DNA from: Spirochaetaceae bacterium
Lineage (GTDB): Bacteria > Spirochaetota > Spirochaetia > DSM-2461
DNA: 64,000 nucleotides
Assembly: GCA_051531975.1 (NCBI GenBank)
Contig: JAOPTT010000003.1
Location: 96,001-160,000 of the forward strand
Reading direction: 5' to 3'
Positions 3,089 to 57,280 of the stretch are shown in pieces. Within the stretch, counting starts at the first letter, position 1. Every line of letters starts with the position of its first letter. The notes under the pieces are model-generated. The model did no database searches, was not told the DNA's origin, and saw only the letters and a list, made by a program, of their open reading frames with translations. The position numbers were made by a program, and so were the translations under genes.

Positions 3089-3957
3089 AGTAGGTTCTCC
3101 TCTCTAATTCTAAGTCTATTGGTTAAAGTTACAGTGATCACTGTCAGGATTATTAAGAAATAGACAGCCACGGCGGATGCATACGAAATTTTATAGCGGT
3201 TGAATCCTACATCTATGATAAATATGGCTATACTCTTTGTCGTATTTACAGGCCCCCCTCCAGTTAGGACAAAAATTATGTCAAATATTTTCATATACCC
3301 AGTAAAGAGGAAGACTGTTACAGTTGTGAAGCTCGGAGCCAACCATGGGAAAGTTATGTTCCAGAATGCTTGGTACGAATTTGCGCCGTCAATTTCTGCT
3401 GCTTCGTATTGCATCGCAGGTATAGCCTGAAGTCCTGATAGGTAAAGAATCGTGGAGAAACCTGTTGCCTGCCAAATACTTATTCCTAAAACAGACCATT
3501 TTGCTAATGAAGGATCTCCTAGAAAATCGATAGCCGTCCAGCCAAATCTCTCAAAAAGGCTATTAACAACACCATAATAGCTGAATAAAGCTTTAAAAAT
3601 AAAACCTACAGCAACAAGACTTATTAGCTGCGGGAAAAAGAATGCGGCTCGGTGAAAATTTGTGAGCAAACTTTTTCGGTTAATTTGTACCGCCAAAAAT
3701 AGAGAAATTATGTTAACCGAAACCCCTCCGAGTAGTGCAAAAAAGAATGTATTTCCTATAGATGTTAAGAATTCAGGCTCTTTTAGAGCTTTTATATAGT
3801 TCGTGAACCCAATAAAATTCATACTAGTCTTCAGTCCATCCCAATCAAAGAATGAATAGTAGAAAGTAAGAAATATAGATACTAGGATTATTGTAGCAAA
3901 GATGGTATATCCCGGCAGGAACATTAATAATTTCTGCTTCCAGTGATTGTCTTTCAT
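3085..3957 (-). CDS. Carbohydrate ABC transporter permease (MalF type)
   Basis: YEAAEIDGAN EAA loop and FDIIFVLTGGGP. Start moved to the ATG at 3957, behind a TAGGA SD. Confidence 0.92.
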   Translation of the reverse strand: MKDNHWKQKLLMFLPGYTIFATIILVSIFLTFYYSFFDWDGLKTSMNFIGFTNYIKALKEPEFLTSIGNTFFFALLGGVSVNIISLFLAVQINRKSLLTNFHRAAFFFPQLISLVAVGFIFKALFSYYGVVNSLFERFGWTAIDFLGDPSLAKWSVLGISIWQATGFSTILYLSGLQAIPAMQYEAAEIDGANSYQAFWNITFPWLAPSFTTVTVFLFTGYMKIFDIIFVLTGGGPVNTTKSIAIFIIDVGFNRYKISYASAVAVYFLIILTVITVTLTNRLRIREENLL

Positions 3958-48947: not shown

Positions 48948-51900
48948 ATGAAAGGATCAGATGATTCAGATCAAAAAGACATTATAGACCAGAAATTACA
49001 GACTCAGATTTTTGATATTATGGATGAGATGTTTCAAGTTATTGAGCTAATATATGACGATAATGGAAAAGCTATTGATTATATTCATCTTCAGGTTAAT
49101 CCCGCTTTTGAAAAGCTTGTTCAAATGAAAAAAGAGGATTTAATAGGGAAAAGAGTTAAAGATATATTTGGAATTATCGAAGATTATTGGATAGAGATTT
49201 ATGAAAGGGTTGAGTCTACAGGAGTTACAGAAAATTTTGAAAATTATGGTGCTGAACTTGATAAATATTACGCAATTAAGGCATGGAAAATAGGTGAGAA
49301 TAAAGTAGCGGTTCTGTTCACAGAAATTACAGAGAAATATAAAATGGAATATGCATTAAAAGAGAGTGAAGAACGAATTAGGTTATTTACTCAAAACGTC
49401 CCAGATTATTTGTTACAAATCGATAGAATGGGGAAAATTGAATATATTAATAAAACGTTTGAAGGTTTAACACAAAAAGATGTTATAGGAACTTCAGTAT
49501 ATTCTTGGATCCCTGATGAGTCTTTGCAAAAGTTTAAAGATAAAGTAGAAAAAGTTTTTATAAATGGATGTAATGAAATTATTGAATATCCGTCAGAAGG
49601 AGCAAAAGGGGAACCTGTATGGTTTGAATCCCAAATAGGACCACTTGAAAATTCTGGTATCATAAATCATGTGATAATTGTCGCAAGGGATATAACAGAA
49701 AAGAAAAATGCAGTAGAAGCCTCTTTAAACAGTGATAAACGATTTAAAATTGTTGCAGAATCAGCAGGGAAATGGGTTTGGGAAATTAATGCAGAAGGTT
49801 TATATACTTATTCAAGTCCTTTGGTTAAGCAAATATTAGGTTATACACCAGAAGAAATAGTCGGTAAAAAACATTTCTTTGATTTCTTCCAGAAGGATGT
49901 TAAAGAGCAATTAAAAGAAGAAGCAATTAATGCTTTTAAGCAAAAGCTTATTATTAAGGATTTTGAAAGTCCTAAAGAACATAAAAATGGTGAAATAGTT
50001 ATTCTAAATACATCAGGCAGTCCTATTCTTGATAAAGATGGTAATTTAATAGGATATCTCGGTGCTGATAGTGATATTACTGAGCGTAAAATTGCAGAAA
50101 ATGAAATTAGATATCAGGCATCTTTAATTGAGCAAATGGATACAGCTATAATAACAATAGGCTTTGATAATAAAATACTTTCCTGGAATGAACATGCCAA
50201 AAGTCTTTATGGGTGGAGTAAGGAAGAAGTTATAGGAAAAGATATTATTGAACTATTAGGCGCTGAAGAATCGAAAGAGGAAACCTTAAAATCATTTGTT
50301 GATCTGAATAGAGATGGGCATTGGGAAGGAGATTATTTAGCTAATAAAAAAGATGGTACTCGAGTTCCAATCCATGTTATAAATTCATATTTAAAAGATT
50401 CAAATGGAGAAAATATTGGATTTATAGGACTGAGTACTGATATTACATATCGTATTAAGGCAGAGATTAAATTAAATCAAAGTACTCAATTACTTGAAAC
50501 ATCTCAAGCAATAGCAAAGCTTGGTGGATGGGAACTGGATATTGTGACAAATAACTTATTCTGGACTGCAGAGACCTATCGTATTTACGATACTTCTACA
50601 GAAGAGTTCAACCCAACAGTGGATGCAGGTTTTGGCTATTTCTTACCTGAGTCTCGTCGTATTATTTCTGATGCATTGAAGGCAGCAGTAGAGAATGCAA
50701 AAGGTTACGACCTTATACTAGAAACCCTGACTACAAAAGGCCGACGAATTGACATACGTACTACATGCGAAGTAATACTACTCGATGGAAAACCCATAAG
50801 GTTAACTGGGATTTTTCAGGATATAACTGAACTTAAGCAAGTAGAAAACAAAATACTTGCTGCTGAAGAAACGGCAAGATTAAATGAACAATATTACAAA
50901 AATATCATCAACAAAATGGGAGACCCAGTTTTTGTAAAAGACAACCAAAGCAGGTTATTACTGGTTAATGATGCTTTTTGTAAAATATTTGATCTCCCAA
51001 GGGATTCAATAATAGGAAAAACACTTGCCGAAGATGTTCCACCAAATGAACGGGAGCATTTTTTGAGAGTCGATAAACAGGTGATACAAGATGGAAAAGA
51101 TAATATTAGTGAGGAGTCGCTTACTGTAAGAAACGGTAAAACTCGTACAATTTCCACAAGAAAGTCGCGTTTTACTGATAATAGTGGTAAAAACTTTTTA
51201 GTAGGAGTTATTCGCGATATCACTGAGATACAAAAATCAGAAGAAGCACTAAGAGAAAGTGAAGAGAATCTTTCAACTATACTCAATTACATTGGGGAAG
51301 CAGTAATTGCAACAGATGGTGAAGGGAAAATTACTCAAATGAACCCTGTTGCACAAAAGTTAACCGGATGGGCACTTAAAGATGCAAAAACAACTTTACT
51401 ACCAAATGTTTTAAAAATCACGAATGCAATCTCGGGAGAAACGATTCCAAATCCCGTAGAAGGGATGATCACCAGCGGGACCATTTATAAACTAACAAAC
51501 AATACCATTCTCACCTCCCGAGATGGTGTAAAGAGACAAATTGCTGCTAGGGGTGCACCTATTAAAAACTCAACAGGTGAAATTGTTGGTGTGGTCCTGG
51601 TATTTCGGGATGTAACAGAACAATACAAACTGGAGGAGCAGTTCAGACAATCTCAAAAAATGGATGCAATCGGTCAACTTGCCGGTGGTGTTGCCCACGA
51701 TTTTAACAATATGTTAACAGGTATAATGGGATGTGCAGAGATAATTTCCAGCAAAGTCGCCGAGGATGAAGCATTAAGCCAGTTATCTAATTTGATTTTG
51801 GATACATCGATGCAGGCTGCAGAACTAACCAAGAAATTATTATCATTTTCCCATAAAGCAAAATCAGTTAACGAGATATTTGATATTCATGAATCTATTA

Positions 51901-52769
51901 CAAAAACCTTATCTATGCTGAAAAGAAGTATAAACAGATCAATTATTATTAAATCTAATTTAGATGCCCCCAATTCATATATTAATGGGGATCAATCTTT
52001 AATACAAAATTCACTTTTGAATTTAGGTTTAAATGCAAGGGATGTTATGCCTAAAGGGGGCACATTAACATTTACAACTAGGAATGTGATTTTTGAACAG
52101 AAAGACATAAATTCTAACTCAGATATTGCCCCTGGTAATTATATAGAAATAGAGGTGGAGGATACAGGTTGTGGAATGACACAGGAAGTACAAAGCCGCC
52201 TTTTTGAACCGTTTTTCACAACAAAACCAATGGGGAAAGGAACCGGCTTAGGACTCTCTACTGTCTACAATACAATTAAGGGGAATGATGGCAATATCTC
52301 TATAAGTAGTGAAATAAATCGTGGCTCTATCTTTAAAATTTTATTACCAATAATTTTGGATATAAATGAAAGCAAAGATATTGTGGCAAAAAAAACTGTA
52401 CCTGGGATTGGCACTATTTTAGTCGTCGACGATGAAAATATTGTACGATTGGTCCTTGGTCAAATGTTAAGTGAACTAGGATACAATGTCCTGTTTGCAG
52501 AAGAAGGTGAAGAGTGTATTAAAATCTATAAAGAAAAAGGAAATTCTATTGATATGATTATTTTAGATATGGTTATGCCAAAGATGAATGGCCGAGATGT
52601 CTTTTACGCATTAAAAGAAATCAATCCTGATATAAAAGTCTTAATTTGCTCTGGGTTTTCTAAGGATATAAATATCGAAAAATTAATTGAGGATGGGGTG
52701 TCAGCTTTTATGCAGAAACCATATAAAAAAATTGATATATCAATGAAAATCAAAGAGATCTTATCTTAG
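48948..52769 (+). CDS. Cytoplasmic multi-PAS hybrid sensor histidine kinase / response regulator
   Basis: About seven PAS/PAC repeats ending in DIT/DVT, QKMDAIGQLAGGVAHDFNNML H-box, FEPFFTTK, C-terminal receiver. Confidence 0.93.
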   Translation: MKGSDDSDQKDIIDQKLQTQIFDIMDEMFQVIELIYDDNGKAIDYIHLQVNPAFEKLVQMKKEDLIGKRVKDIFGIIEDYWIEIYERVESTGVTENFENYGAELDKYYAIKAWKIGENKVAVLFTEITEKYKMEYALKESEERIRLFTQNVPDYLLQIDRMGKIEYINKTFEGLTQKDVIGTSVYSWIPDESLQKFKDKVEKVFINGCNEIIEYPSEGAKGEPVWFESQIGPLENSGIINHVIIVARDITEKKNAVEASLNSDKRFKIVAESAGKWVWEINAEGLYTYSSPLVKQILGYTPEEIVGKKHFFDFFQKDVKEQLKEEAINAFKQKLIIKDFESPKEHKNGEIVILNTSGSPILDKDGNLIGYLGADSDITERKIAENEIRYQASLIEQMDTAIITIGFDNKILSWNEHAKSLYGWSKEEVIGKDIIELLGAEESKEETLKSFVDLNRDGHWEGDYLANKKDGTRVPIHVINSYLKDSNGENIGFIGLSTDITYRIKAEIKLNQSTQLLETSQAIAKLGGWELDIVTNNLFWTAETYRIYDTSTEEFNPTVDAGFGYFLPESRRIISDALKAAVENAKGYDLILETLTTKGRRIDIRTTCEVILLDGKPIRLTGIFQDITELKQVENKILAAEETARLNEQYYKNIINKMGDPVFVKDNQSRLLLVNDAFCKIFDLPRDSIIGKTLAEDVPPNEREHFLRVDKQVIQDGKDNISEESLTVRNGKTRTISTRKSRFTDNSGKNFLVGVIRDITEIQKSEEALRESEENLSTILNYIGEAVIATDGEGKITQMNPVAQKLTGWALKDAKTTLLPNVLKITNAISGETIPNPVEGMITSGTIYKLTNNTILTSRDGVKRQIAARGAPIKNSTGEIVGVVLVFRDVTEQYKLEEQFRQSQKMDAIGQLAGGVAHDFNNMLTGIMGCAEIISSKVAEDEALSQLSNLILDTSMQAAELTKKLLSFSHKAKSVNEIFDIHESITKTLSMLKRSINRSIIIKSNLDAPNSYINGDQSLIQNSLLNLGLNARDVMPKGGTLTFTTRNVIFEQKDINSNSDIAPGNYIEIEVEDTGCGMTQEVQSRLFEPFFTTKPMGKGTGLGLSTVYNTIKGNDGNISISSEINRGSIFKILLPIILDINESKDIVAKKTVPGIGTILVVDDENIVRLVLGQMLSELGYNVLFAEEGEECIKIYKEKGNSIDMIILDMVMPKMNGRDVFYALKEINPDIKVLICSGFSKDINIEKLIEDGVSAFMQKPYKKIDISMKIKEILS

Positions 52770-53853: not shown

Positions 53854-54222
53854 TTATTGGTTAATAATTTTATTAATCTTACCTGTTAATACATCCAAAT
53901 CAAATATTGGTTTAAGTATAATGTTATTATTTGTTAAACCTAAAGAAGTCAATGTTTGCGGAATAGAATAATTATAATCTCCAGTGTGTATTAGAAATTT
54001 CATTTCTGGTTTAATCTTATTAATTTCTATTATTAGTTTATCACCTTCCATATCTGGAATATGAAGATCAACAATAACAAGGTCGATATCACTTTTTGTA
54101 GATATGGATAAACCTTCTGATGCAGTTGAGGAACAGTATATTTTAAAACCTTCATCTTCCAATAACATTTCTAATGATATACGAATGGATTCATCATCAT
54201 CAATTATTAAAATATGTTTCAT
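53854..54222 (-). CDS. Single-domain response regulator
   Basis: ILIIDDD, VIVDLHIPDMEG, HTG, LKP. Confidence 0.88.
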   Translation of the reverse strand: MKHILIIDDDESIRISLEMLLEDEGFKIYCSSTASEGLSISTKSDIDLVIVDLHIPDMEGDKLIIEINKIKPEMKFLIHTGDYNYSIPQTLTSLGLTNNNIILKPIFDLDVLTGKINKIINQ

Positions 54223-54323
54223 TTTGTCCCCCTAAATGTATTATAAACTAAAACAAACAATTATTATCATTAATTTTTAATTAATTTACATTTAATTCAC
54301 AGGGGGACTATTTTAATACAATA

Positions 54324-56264
54324 TTAAAACTGAGATTTATGTTTTATAAAAAAATCTACTCTAGGCTCAAGCCATTTAAGTTTATGGTCACTAGGGTTTT
54401 CTGTAAAATAGTAGATATCTTTAAATAGATAATCCCAATTAAAGAAGTCATCGTTAACATTTAGATAATCCTTAACCAGCTCTGTTCCTGTAGGGGCAAC
54501 AGGATGTAAAAGAAATATAGCGGTTCTTAACATATGGAAAATATCTATAAGTACCAATTTTATATCATCTTCATTTATATCTTTTACCATTCTTTTAGCC
54601 CACTCTTTACTTATGCCTCTAATATATTTTTCTATATTAAACATAGCTTTATGGAATTCGTTATTATAAACCCTTCTTTCCCACTCTAATATTATTCTTT
54701 TTGAACCCTCTAAAACTTCACTTGATATTTCCCCATATGGTAAAACTCCATCAAAGTATTTTTGAGTTGTGTAAAAACAGGAACGACAGATTCTATTTAA
54801 AACATTACTTAATAGATTACCCTCTTTTAAAACCGGATCTGCATCTTTCTCTTTTGCTTCTTTATTAAAAGGCTTAGGGTTAAAATTTATTGGTCGCATA
54901 CCAAGACCTAGGGCAAAAAAATGAGCTCGCAACTGGTCTGGGGTATAATGCTCTAATAAGTCCAGAGCCATTATTGGTTTTATCTCGCCAGAAGATGAAG
55001 CTTTTCGATTACCTTGAAGAAGATGACAATTGGCTATTAATTTTGGAAATTGTAACTTTCGACCTTCTAAGCCCATAAATAAAGACATCTCAGCAAGACT
55101 ATAAAAAAAGATATTATCCTCTCCCATAAACTGATAAACAGTAGAATCTTCTGAAGACCACCAATCCTCAACCTTATTTGAACTAAGACTATGAGACTCT
55201 AGATAACATTTTGTAAATGAAATTGGTGCCCATAAAGATTCAGGCCAAACCCAAAATGTTAAATCCTTTAATCCATCAATCTCTGGGACATTTATACTCC
55301 ACTCTATATTTCCTGTTATTCTAAATGGAGTAAGGGTTTTTCCTGCTCTAAAACGTAACCCCTCCCTGTTTAATATTTCTACTGCTAACTCTCTTTGTTC
55401 TAGTGATGTGAAAATTAAAGATATTGATTTTTTATCTTCCTTTGTTTCATGGCCTGGAAGTTTACCTTTAATTAGTTCTAGTGCTTCTTTACTTTCGTTT
55501 TTAATATAAACAACAGGAGGTTCTAAGAACTCTTTAATTGTAGAAATTACATGTCGCCTACTATCAGATCTATTTTCTATTTTATTAACCCACTGGATTA
55601 ATTCGTTTTTAAAGTTATTAGGATCAATATACCAGTTAGTAACCTCCTTCATTTCTGGAGGTTCCCCAGATAATATACTTGTTGGATTAATTAAATCTTT
55701 TGGATCATAGGGGTGCCCCATTTCACACTCATCAGCATATGCCTTTTCTGACTTACAACCTGGCACAGGACACATCCCTATAACCTGTCGCCCATTTAAA
55801 AATGAGTTTAATTTTTTGTCAAAGAATTGAGCAGCTGAACGTTTATGTAGGTGCCCATTTTGATATAACTCAGTTAAAACATCAGAGCTTAATTGTTTAT
55901 GTATCTCCCCAGGTCTTCCAAAAGCTGAAGTATAATAGGATTCTGTAGAAATGTTAAAAGCTTCTAAAGCTACTTTCTGATTATTATGATTAAACAAAAT
56001 AAACTCTTCTAATGAACCACTGAATTCACCGCTTTTTATCTGTTTTTTGTAATATTCAATAATTGGAGAGCCGTAACAATCTGTTCCAGAGACAAAAATT
56101 ACATTATCTTTACCTAATCTATCCTGGAGAAACCTTTTATATATGTCTGCATGTACAAAGACACCTCCAATGTGCCCTAAATGTAAACTTTTATTGCCAT
56201 ATGGCATCCCAGCTGTAACTACTGCTCTAATAGGAAATTCTGGTCTAGAATTATCTACTCTCAT
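54324..56264 (-). CDS. Divergent MetRS-like class I aminoacyl-tRNA synthetase; amino-acid specificity uncertain
   Basis: PYGNKSLHLGH (HIGH), GTDCYG, zinc knuckle, KASSS in place of KMSKS, helical anticodon-binding domain; Met-pocket motifs altered. Confidence 0.85.
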   Translation of the reverse strand: MRVDNSRPEFPIRAVVTAGMPYGNKSLHLGHIGGVFVHADIYKRFLQDRLGKDNVIFVSGTDCYGSPIIEYYKKQIKSGEFSGSLEEFILFNHNNQKVALEAFNISTESYYTSAFGRPGEIHKQLSSDVLTELYQNGHLHKRSAAQFFDKKLNSFLNGRQVIGMCPVPGCKSEKAYADECEMGHPYDPKDLINPTSILSGEPPEMKEVTNWYIDPNNFKNELIQWVNKIENRSDSRRHVISTIKEFLEPPVVYIKNESKEALELIKGKLPGHETKEDKKSISLIFTSLEQRELAVEILNREGLRFRAGKTLTPFRITGNIEWSINVPEIDGLKDLTFWVWPESLWAPISFTKCYLESHSLSSNKVEDWWSSEDSTVYQFMGEDNIFFYSLAEMSLFMGLEGRKLQFPKLIANCHLLQGNRKASSSGEIKPIMALDLLEHYTPDQLRAHFFALGLGMRPINFNPKPFNKEAKEKDADPVLKEGNLLSNVLNRICRSCFYTTQKYFDGVLPYGEISSEVLEGSKRIILEWERRVYNNEFHKAMFNIEKYIRGISKEWAKRMVKDINEDDIKLVLIDIFHMLRTAIFLLHPVAPTGTELVKDYLNVNDDFFNWDYLFKDIYYFTENPSDHKLKWLEPRVDFFIKHKSQF

Positions 56265-56282
56265 ATTATTCTCCTAATTATA

Positions 56283-56316
56283 AAATAAAAAAGCCCCACT
56301 TTAATAAGTGGGGCTT
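56283..56316 (-). terminator. Attenuator terminator upstream of the synthetase gene
   Basis: Minus strand AAGCCCCACTT-ATTA-AAGTGGGGCTT-TTTTATTTT: perfect 11-bp stem plus U-tract. Confidence 0.9.
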
Positions 56317-56333
56317 CTAAAATAAACAATGTT

Positions 56334-56405
56334 TTAAGCAGCCCCATAATAAAGTTGTTGTTGTTGAGTTTGTTGCTGTTGTTCCTGTCTACTTAAATTA
56401 TTCAT
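56334..56405 (-). CDS. Glutamine-rich attenuator leader peptide MNNLSRQEQQQQTQQQQLYYGAA
   Basis: 23-codon ORF with 9 Gln codons. Its 3' end TGGGGCT is complementary to the terminator 5' arm AGCCCCA, and a TTGACT-N17-AATACT promoter lies just upstream. Confidence 0.85.
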   Translation of the reverse strand: MNNLSRQEQQQQTQQQQLYYGAA

Positions 56406-56476
56406 TAACTGAAGTATTACATTAAAAATTTAGAAAGTCAAACATAGTAAAGGGATTGTAATTGAAAGGTTTTAAG

Positions 56477-57280
56477 CTAAATCTTCCTAACATTTACCAA
56501 TTCAAGATATTCTGAAATCCACATTTTATATGCAGGTGGAATTACTTCCTGATCGAATTTAATAATTATTGAAAGTAGGCTTTCATCTTCGTTGACTACC
56601 TCGATTCTTTCTATATGTCCTATCATCTCACCAATACCTTCAAGTCCTTTGTATTTCATGATTAACATAGCACTACTATTTCTTAATATTTTTGATGTGC
56701 ATCCAACAAGAATAACTTTAGCACTAAACATCGAAAGTTCAGTTAATATGCATCTTTTACCACAGCCAGAAACAAAAAGAAAGTTCTGATGGTTTTTACT
56801 TTTTGAGGAGCTGTAGAGGTCTTTATTTAAAATAAATCGCTCTTCTGCTCGTTTATGTAAATTTAACTGTTTTATTATATGGGAGCCTAGAATGTTTATA
56901 AAATCGTCAGGAACTCTCTTTGAAAAATCAACTAAAAAGAAATATAGGTCTTTTTTTTCTTGATTATACTCAGTTATTTCTGAAATTTTTGAATGTATAT
57001 AAAAACAGATCTCTTTATGTTCATATTTATCATTGAAAGAAAACATTATAGATATTTTCTGTTGTTTTCTTTTTATGTAATTTAACTGATCGATTGATAG
57101 ATTTATCAGAATCTTTGCACCACTTAAGGATGAAGAATATATTATGCATGAGAGCTTCATCCCACTACATTTTAGTGTTATATCAGCAGGACGTAGCCCT
57201 AATTCTTTAATAACACTCTGATTAAAAGTAATACTATGATCTTTATGATCATCATAGATCTGATTTAGTCTTCTATCCAT
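56477..57280 (-). CDS. Spirochaetal PilZ-domain c-di-GMP receptor (PlzA-like)
   Basis: SITFNQSVIKELGL..LK...CIIYSSS N-domain and a KRAEERF RxxxR motif; the second PilZ motif appears as ELSMFSA. Confidence 0.75.
   Translation of the reverse strand: MDRRLNQIYDDHKDHSITFNQSVIKELGLRPADITLKCSGMKLSCIIYSSSLSGAKILINLSIDQLNYIKRKQQKISIMFSFNDKYEHKEICFYIHSKISEITEYNQEKKDLYFFLVDFSKRVPDDFINILGSHIIKQLNLHKRAEERFILNKDLYSSSKSKNHQNFLFVSGCGKRCILTELSMFSAKVILVGCTSKILRNSSAMLIMKYKGLEGIGEMIGHIERIEVVNEDESLLSIIIKFDQEVIPPAYKMWISEYLELVNVRKI

Follow-up and report, generated by a model that had tools for sequence, protein, structure and literature searches.

The DNA analyzed here is a stretch of 64,000 nucleotides (nt), called the window below, from a Spirochaetaceae bacterium (assembly GCA_051531975.1, contig JAOPTT010000003.1, positions 96,001 to 160,000 of the forward strand). 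On its minus strand, positions 54324..56264 hold an open reading frame (ORF) of 646 amino acids (aa) that matches the methionyl-tRNA synthetase (MetRS) family and thus encodes a MetRS-like class I ligase, named P0001 in this work. Between its promoter and its Shine-Dalgarno (SD) sequence lie a short ORF rich in glutamine codons and an intrinsic terminator. We describe this leader, its counterparts elsewhere in the genome and upstream of orthologous genes, and the distribution of the gene among bacteria, which together point to an attenuator that reports the supply of Gln-tRNA(Gln) and to an enzyme that most likely charges tRNA-Gln.

Organization of the leader region

The promoter, read from the sequence of the minus strand at 56413..56441, consists of a TTGACT -35 box, a 17-nt spacer and a TG-extended -10 box, AATACT. 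The ATG of the leader ORF, at 56405, lies 7 nt past the -10 box and has no SD sequence, and given this spacing the transcript would be leaderless or nearly so. The ORF itself (56334..56405, minus strand) comprises 23 codons and a stop codon and reads MNNLSRQEQQQQTQQQQLYYGAA. Codons 7 to 17 (56355..56387) form a control block in which nine of the 11 codons specify Gln (seven CAA and two CAG), and no Met codon occurs after the start. All Gln codons of the block are decoded by the one tRNA-Gln gene of the assembly, which has the anticodon UUG and G73. A run of this density is unique: in a census of small ORFs covering both strands of the whole genome (8 to 60 codons, nested starts counted), at least 8 Gln in 11 codons were found in one ORF of 220,945, namely, this leader, and 7 Gln in four ORFs.

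None of the Rfam families passes its threshold in the leader. At E <= 10, the Rfam search of positions 54000-57000 brought up nothing above threshold; the terminator drove the matches, which were led by Ref84 (30.8; threshold 52) and Thr_leader (25.3; threshold 55). No T-box was found in this interval by the same search, nor anywhere in the genome, which is 98.5% complete.

Two mutually exclusive hairpins

Numbering the RNA from the A of the leader ATG (nt 1 = 56405), the sequence UGGGGCU at nt 60-66 (56346-56340, leader codons 20 to 22) is exactly complementary to AGCCCCA at nt 91-97 (56315-56309), which is the 5' arm of the terminator. A given 7-mer is expected about 7e-4 times by chance within 60 nt; a second UGGGGCU lies at nt 108-114. 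When the nascent RNA was folded up to nt 97, the two elements paired in an antiterminator hairpin of -13.0 kcal/mol spanning nt 60-97 (56309..56346, minus strand), in which an inner helix extends the pairing. Folding of the complete leader gave instead an intrinsic terminator (56280..56318, minus strand; -20.4 kcal/mol) made of a 13-pair hairpin at nt 88-117 (56318-56289) and a U tail. Both structures require nt 91-97 and are therefore mutually exclusive, and in the nascent RNA the antiterminator forms before the 3' arm of the terminator exists. The stop codon of the leader (nt 70-72) sits inside the antiterminator hairpin. In the complete-leader fold, nt 12-21 and nt 77-86 pair with each other, and weak pairing joins part of the Gln block to nt 60-67. 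The SD sequence of the synthetase gene, AGGAG, follows at 56271..56275.

Most of this anatomy had already been claimed in a first-pass annotation of the window, made from the sequence alone. Its promoter (56441-56413), its leaderless-looking 23-codon ORF (56405-56334) with nine Gln codons and no internal Met, its AGGAG (56275-56271) ahead of the synthetase gene (56264-54324), and its pairing of TGGGGCT with AGCCCCA were all recovered as described, the last of these with alternative hairpins to go with it. The terminator was placed by that annotation at 56316-56283 with 11 bp; a hairpin with a U tail is indeed present, but with the 13 pairs and the boundaries given above.

These features suggest the following mechanism. 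Transcription would start at or beside the leader AUG, and the 23-codon leader would be translated by a ribosome. With ample Gln-tRNA, the ribosome would reach the stop codon at nt 70-72 and mask UGGGGCU at nt 60-66, so that the terminator would form and transcription would stop ahead of the synthetase gene. With scarce Gln-tRNA, the ribosome would stall within the block of nine Gln codons (nt 19-51), leaving UGGGGCU free to pair with the 5' arm of the terminator and allowing RNA polymerase to enter the gene. Leader-peptide attenuation is known to govern a synthetase in the case of pheST. The locus resembles the enterobacterial leader-peptide attenuators (trp, his, leu, thr, ilv, and pheST) in its short ORF with clustered codons for the regulated amino acid, in its mutually exclusive antiterminator and terminator, and in a stop codon whose ribosome would mask the antiterminator. 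It differs from them in that the control codons are Gln codons, the leader lacks an SD sequence and starts 7 nt past the -10 box, the controlled gene is a synthetase paralogue of unassigned specificity, and the host is a spirochaete.

Leaders of the same design in the genome

The genome was screened for small ORFs ending just before a terminator and followed by a long gene with an SD sequence, which yielded 129 candidates before 75 genes. Twenty of these genes, chosen for enriched leaders or for a synthetase-like length, were annotated, and five of them turned out to be preceded by leaders of the same kind (NCBIfam scores and cut-offs in bits). The leader of thrS (614; cut-off 383.65; locus L112, C14:176837-176890) encodes MIINVKSTTTTTQTTTD, with 8 Thr. 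The serS leader (418; cut-off 301.65; L113) contains SISSSSSEF, that of tyrS (325; cut-off 113.8; L114) contains TNYYYYYNS, and that of argS (470.9; cut-off 261.65; L116) contains NSRRRQ, with 7 Arg in all. The fifth gene, leuA (563; cut-off 532; L115), has a leader with 10 Leu. All five leaders have a TTGACA-like -35 box, a -10 box ending 6 to 9 nt before the ATG, and no SD sequence, and in all five the enriched codon is that of the amino acid served by the gene. The rule on which the first-pass annotation had relied, that the control codons name the amino acid served, thus holds for thrS, serS, tyrS, argS, and leuA in this very host. No convincing amino acid run was seen in the leaders of the remaining 15 annotated genes, and neither a leader nor a terminator lies upstream of the canonical glnS and metG of the genome.

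The thrS leader is kept in both genomes of the same genus in which thrS was found, with the peptides MNKNIEFTITTTQTTTKI and MINRILITTTTTQTTTGL. Promoter spacing, a CUGGAG antiterminator just past the stop codon, and the terminator are all preserved there, and the residues flanking the run vary. The genome holds two divergent copies, 28 to 32% identical, of each of serS (C5 and C2), tyrS (C10 and C8), and argS (C14 and C9). Searches of three same-genus genomes at E <= 1e-100 returned no serS, tyrS, or argS of the attenuated type; the attenuated genes are the second, divergent copies. The genome measures 5.46 Mb, compared to 2.7 to 3.7 Mb in the same-genus genomes. The larger genome thus has a set of extra, presumably inducible synthetases, each with a leader reading its own amino acid, and P0001 with its Gln leader belongs to this set; its proposed inducible role parallels that of the extra serS, tyrS, and argS copies.

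A MetRS-like protein with an altered pocket

P0001 matches the MetRS catalytic family PF09334 with 220 bits and falls far below the MetRS equivalog cut-offs (235.3 versus 587 for NF001100 and 184.6 versus 336.35 for TIGR00398). It gave no match at E <= 0.01 to glnS models, including that of the canonical glutaminyl-tRNA synthetase (GlnRS), TIGR00440. Alignment to solved MetRS structures runs from residue 12 into the anticodon domain, reaching residue 524 of 1RQG, and is interrupted after residue 250 by about 65 inserted aa. The HLGH motif, the zinc-binding Cys/His knuckle and the homology of the anticodon domain, including the Asn-x3-Arg pair of the anticodon helix, are retained, and no cupin domain is present. 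In place of KMSKS, P0001 has KASSS, which lacks the second Lys and aligns with KFSTS of Pyrococcus abyssi MetRS. An alignment of 12 sequences shows invariance of HLGH, KASSS, and the Cys/His knuckle, as well as of many positions in the helical domain at the C terminus.

The motifs of the methionine pocket are changed. In a profile alignment, P0001 reads VW-PES-LWAPISF where Escherichia coli MetRS reads VW-LDAPIGY, and GEDNIYFYSLAE where E. coli MetRS has GKDIVYFHSLFW. Relative to E. coli MetRS, P0001 has an insertion of PES and carries W for D, F for Y, N for I, Y for H, and E for W, at positions that we take to touch the methionine-pocket residues Y260, I297, H301, and W305 (E. coli numbering). 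P0001 thus shares with the zinc-knuckle MetRSs (P. abyssi 1RQG and E. coli 1QQT/1F4L; PF09334) the Rossmann core with HLGH, the knuckle, and the helical C-terminal domain, but its regulation appears to be tied to Gln rather than to Met. With GlnRS and the amidotransferase GatCAB it would share the product, Gln-tRNA(Gln), and it shows a genome distribution complementary to theirs; unlike GlnRS, which derives from glutamyl-tRNA synthetase (GluRS) and is of the class Ib Glx type, it belongs to the class Ia MetRS lineage. P0001 would be a GlnRS analogue of independent origin. A MetRS-derived domain with altered amino acid specificity is also found in the hydrazine synthetases, which combine a cupin with a MetRS-like domain, according to a portion of PMC12376268. 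P0001 differs from these in having neither a cupin domain nor the gene cluster context, and in a regulation that would sense tRNA.

Relatives are numerous, and the family is well conserved. The best 120 matches are 53 to 67% identical over the full length; those that bear a name are called class I tRNA ligase family protein or methionyl-tRNA synthetase. At least 586 relatives were found among the 600 stretches listed by a scan of species genomes, and a scan of metagenomes added five loci with 45 to 55% identity, none of them closer than the loci analyzed here. A canonical MetRS is present beside the MetRS-like gene in all six genomes checked.

Gln T-boxes upstream of orthologous genes

The regions upstream of orthologues were screened for motifs (82 regions), and Rfam was run on 38 loci, the rest being covered by motif only; a first Rfam set of 15 loci included eight that had been preselected by the motif screen. 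A co-oriented T-box lies directly upstream of the gene in ten loci (L010, L013, L016, L019, L021, L032, L050, L060, L133, and L135). In all ten the specifier is a Gln codon, in the context GAA-(a)-CAA-G in four and GAA-CAG-G/U in six, and in none is it AUG. CAA occurs in leaders of lower GC content and CAG in those of higher GC content. An alternative reading as an Asn specifier (AAC) was rejected, as it overlaps the conserved GAA of the loop and the canonical position gives CAA or CAG according to GC content.

For pairing with the tRNA end, the T-box bulge offers UGGC in four loci and UGGU in six. All eight tRNA-Gln genes read from five T-box genomes have G73, which pairs with C or U. Elongator tRNA-Met has A73, with which a UGGC bulge would not pair. 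The T-box riboswitch (RF00230), here in its rare Gln-specifier class, would thus sense the same signal as the leader of P0001, uncharged tRNA-Gln, but through pairing between RNA and tRNA, as opposed to a ribosome moving over codons.

The first-pass annotation had proposed a scan of homologues for Gln-rich leaders or Gln-specifier T-boxes; only the T-boxes were found. A Gln-run leader was seen in none of the 82 upstream regions of the other loci, where the densest stretch, in L085 at about 305 nt ahead of the gene, held 6 Gln in 12 codons. Seven spirochaete relatives (L092 to L095, L009, L011, and L017) showed no upstream Rfam match at E <= 0.1.

Two further observations were made in these regions. 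In L029, a T-box of 126.7 bits on the minus strand (3618-3851) points away from the homologue and has the specifier GUA (Val); lying on the other strand with this specifier, it belongs to the neighboring gene. Two same-family relatives, L092 and L093, share a conserved GC-rich stretch of about 170 nt, at about 1180-1350 in each, between the terminator of the upstream gene and the homologue. A GC hairpin followed by a U run, resembling a terminator, closes this stretch, in which neither an Rfam match nor a Gln-rich ORF was seen. It is missing in L094 and may represent another kind of leader.

Distribution of the routes to Gln-tRNA

The host genome encodes a canonical GlnRS (699.5 bits) and no GatB. 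For a controlled comparison, 151 genomes of at least 90% requested completeness were drawn evenly from the Clostridia, the class of Ruminococcus albus 8, and 150 were scored. GlnRS was found in none of the 16 carriers of the MetRS-like gene and in 94 of the 134 non-carriers (Fisher p = 3e-8), and both known routes were missing in 4 of the 16 carriers and in none of the 134 non-carriers (Fisher p = 9e-5), p values that overstate the significance since the sampled genomes are related to one another. GatB was present in 12/16 carriers and 99/134 non-carriers. The anticorrelation with glnS and gatCAB that the first-pass annotation suggested as a test is thus clear for GlnRS and for the four genomes with neither route, all of which are carriers, but does not extend to GatB.

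A second set consisted of 50 carrier genomes, chosen from 80 loci and mainly represented by loci on long contigs. GlnRS scored above its cut-off in seven of these genomes and GatB was detected in 28 (E <= 0.001), in 26 of them above cut-off, once truncated by a contig end, and once weakly in a genome bearing GlnRS. Neither route was found in 19 of the 50 carriers, for which no completeness is stated. Three of the 19 are isolates according to their records, namely, R. albus 8, Ruminococcus sp. YRD2003, and Lachnospiraceae bacterium YSD2013. In each of them only one GluRS-type gene was found, and the MetRS-like gene is accompanied by a canonical MetRS. The GluRS-type gene belongs to the bacterial gltX type in R. 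albus (279.7 bits; cut-off 289.95).

Regulation and distribution are correlated: T-boxes precede the gene in 5/7 carriers with GlnRS versus 2/43 without it (p = 2e-4; 50 carrier genomes), which matches inducible control in the GlnRS-bearing genome studied here. The gltX gene adjoins the MetRS-like gene in 18 of 89 loci (L026, L030, L035, L055, L063, and 13 more), mostly upstream on the same strand and ending within about 80 nt, in an operon-like arrangement. Within the family of the host, the gene has a patchy distribution, occurring in 5 of 40 other relatives and in none of the three genomes of the same genus.

Neighboring genes in the window

The genes around P0001 encode a PilZN3 protein, a response regulator, a hydrolase, and a PAS hybrid kinase; none is biosynthetic and none is related to the synthetase. 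Upstream lies the gene for the PilZN3-domain protein (267 aa; 56477-57280, minus strand), which ends at 56477, about 160 nt before the terminator hairpin. On the other side are a small response-regulator gene (54222-53854) and, on the plus strand, a gene for a hybrid histidine kinase of 1273 aa carrying a receiver domain in addition to about five PAS domains (48948-52769). Neither the PilZN3 protein nor the hybrid kinase has a visible link to the synthetase. No clear intrinsic terminator was found 3' of the synthetase gene (54222-54324); an inverted repeat of long range, tccccct ... aggggga, stretches across the gap between this gene and the response-regulator gene.

Discussion

We propose that this locus is a ribosome-mediated transcription attenuator reporting the supply of Gln-tRNA(Gln), placed before an enzyme with a MetRS scaffold that most likely charges tRNA-Gln directly, and we give this reading a probability of roughly 60%. 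The leader is a real feature of the DNA, and as far as computation goes its interpretation is supported by the alternative folds, by the five parallel leaders of the same genome, by the Gln T-boxes of orthologues, and by the distribution of the known routes. Translation of the leader, the dependence of read-through on its Gln codons, and the attachment of Gln to tRNA-Gln are inferred.

The suggestion of the first-pass annotation that the MetRS paralogue might be a Gln-tRNA-related enzyme thus gains support from the T-boxes and the distribution, with one correction: the host has a canonical GlnRS, and P0001 would therefore serve here as an inducible extra synthetase rather than as the sole route. 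Most likely, it is an additional tRNA-Gln synthetase induced when Gln-tRNA runs short. An enzyme that stays off until tRNA-Gln is uncharged would have to act on uncharged tRNA, and in a host with GlnRS and without GatB no Glu-tRNA(Gln) is expected, so that direct charging is favored over an amidotransferase-like step. Extended to the whole family, the proposal is that direct glutaminylation by a widespread MetRS-derived class I enzyme constitutes a third route to Gln-tRNA, which would be the only route in many Clostridia and an attenuator-switched backup in this spirochaete; we regard this wider claim as somewhat more probable than its opposite.

Several points weigh against our reading. The host has a full GlnRS and 12 of the 16 Clostridia carriers have GatB, so that the enzyme would often be redundant. 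The relatedness of the sampled Clostridia and the unstated completeness of the 50 carrier genomes, both mentioned above, weaken the argument from distribution. The leader has no SD sequence, and its translation depends on leaderless initiation, deduced from the spacing to the -10 box. A search for sequencing runs that contain the locus yielded a DNA run, probably its source, and an RNA run of 12 million letters sharing almost none of its words. A scan for the consensus promoter was not above shuffled sequences (23 sites versus 21.4 expected), and the weight of the promoter therefore comes from the five parallel leaders in the same genome. The terminator is more stable than the antiterminator (-20.4 versus -13.0 kcal/mol), so that the choice made by the switch has to be kinetic. 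As no Gln-run leader was seen in the 82 upstream regions of the other loci and the gene is absent from all three same-genus genomes, the Gln leader itself is without comparative support. Finally, the amino acid bound by P0001 cannot be read from its sequence.

Other explanations would keep part of this picture. If the switch does respond to Gln-tRNA, the enzyme might still act in an indirect route, either as a substitute for GatCAB that turns Glu-tRNA(Gln) into Gln-tRNA(Gln) or by charging tRNA-Gln with Glu. Such a role would fit the presence of gltX beside the gene in 18/89 loci, mostly just upstream on the same strand, and the retention of GatB in 12 of the 16 Clostridia carriers. It fits the host poorly, which has GlnRS but no GatB and whose GluRS should discriminate, leaving no Glu-tRNA(Gln) to convert; moreover, an enzyme that is off unless tRNA-Gln is uncharged could not clear constant mischarging. 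Glu on tRNA-Gln would harm 19 of the 50 carriers, those that lack GatB as well as GlnRS, and in Clostridia the exclusion is with GlnRS (0/16), not with GatB. We therefore consider an indirect role unlikely. Equally unlikely in our view is an enzyme that works independently of tRNA, as an amino-acid-activating ligase for glutamine supply or for a secondary metabolite, with the Gln sensors reporting a need for glutamine. Attenuators and T-boxes also govern biosynthetic genes, leuA being an example in this host, and AsnA, an asparagine synthetase derived from an aminoacyl-tRNA synthetase, is a precedent. Activation of amino acids without tRNA is described for MetRS-like domains in PMC12376268. 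P0001, however, has neither a cupin domain nor biosynthetic neighbors, its homology to MetRS continues through the anticodon-binding domain, and the gene fills exactly the gap left by the missing tRNA-charging routes, which would not be expected of a glutamine-making enzyme.

The most conservative explanation denies the sensor altogether: the ORF with the Gln run would be fortuitous, the hairpin would simply terminate a small RNA or the upstream PilZN3-type gene, and the synthetase would be a divergent or drug-resistant MetRS. The upstream gene, which ends at 56477, does need a terminator, the leader lacks an SD sequence, the promoter scan is at chance level, and resistant MetRS paralogues exist, as stated in a section of PMC5388404. 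On the other side, the Gln run is unique in the genome, and UGGGGCU is complementary to the terminator arm without a mismatch; the runs in five leaders built alike agree with the genes behind them; and the orthologue T-boxes specify Gln in 10/10 cases and never Met, in keeping with a leader that has no Met codon past its start. The canonical metG of the host has no such leader, P0001 misses the MetRS cut-offs widely, and the changes in the pocket also contradict a plain or drug-resistant MetRS. We rate this explanation as slightly less probable still than the two preceding ones.

According to textbooks and genome surveys, there are only two sources of Gln-tRNA(Gln), namely, GlnRS, and a non-discriminating GluRS with an amidotransferase acting after it. 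Published statements agree with this: all prokaryotes without GlnRS are said to use transamidation (in a passage of PMC5388404), an amidotransferase was found in every species without GlnRS (in a passage of PMC2494555), and in the corresponding section of PMC3927822 bacteria are sorted by GlnRS, GluRS2, and gatCAB, with no third option named there. Gln is among the rarest T-box specifiers according to an excerpt of the TBDB paper (PMC7778990). A literature search that left out supplements returned nothing on genomes without both routes, on Gln-codon attenuators, or on an enzyme for Gln that resembles MetRS; the first-pass annotation likewise knew of no description of the arrangement. New here are the leader-peptide Gln sensor before this family, its calibration on five genes of the host, and the controlled count of routes.

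Two unrelated sensors of uncharged tRNA-Gln, the T-boxes of Clostridia and the ribosome-read leader of a spirochaete, would thus stand before the same MetRS-derived family, and this family occupies exactly the genomes that miss both known routes. For the host, the locus suggests that the part played by T-boxes at synthetase genes of Firmicutes is taken in its lineage by leaderless leader-peptide attenuators. If the enzyme does charge tRNA-Gln, a well-defined protein is at hand for a direct test, many gut and rumen genomes would be misannotated, and one synthetase specificity would have arisen twice from different ancestors.

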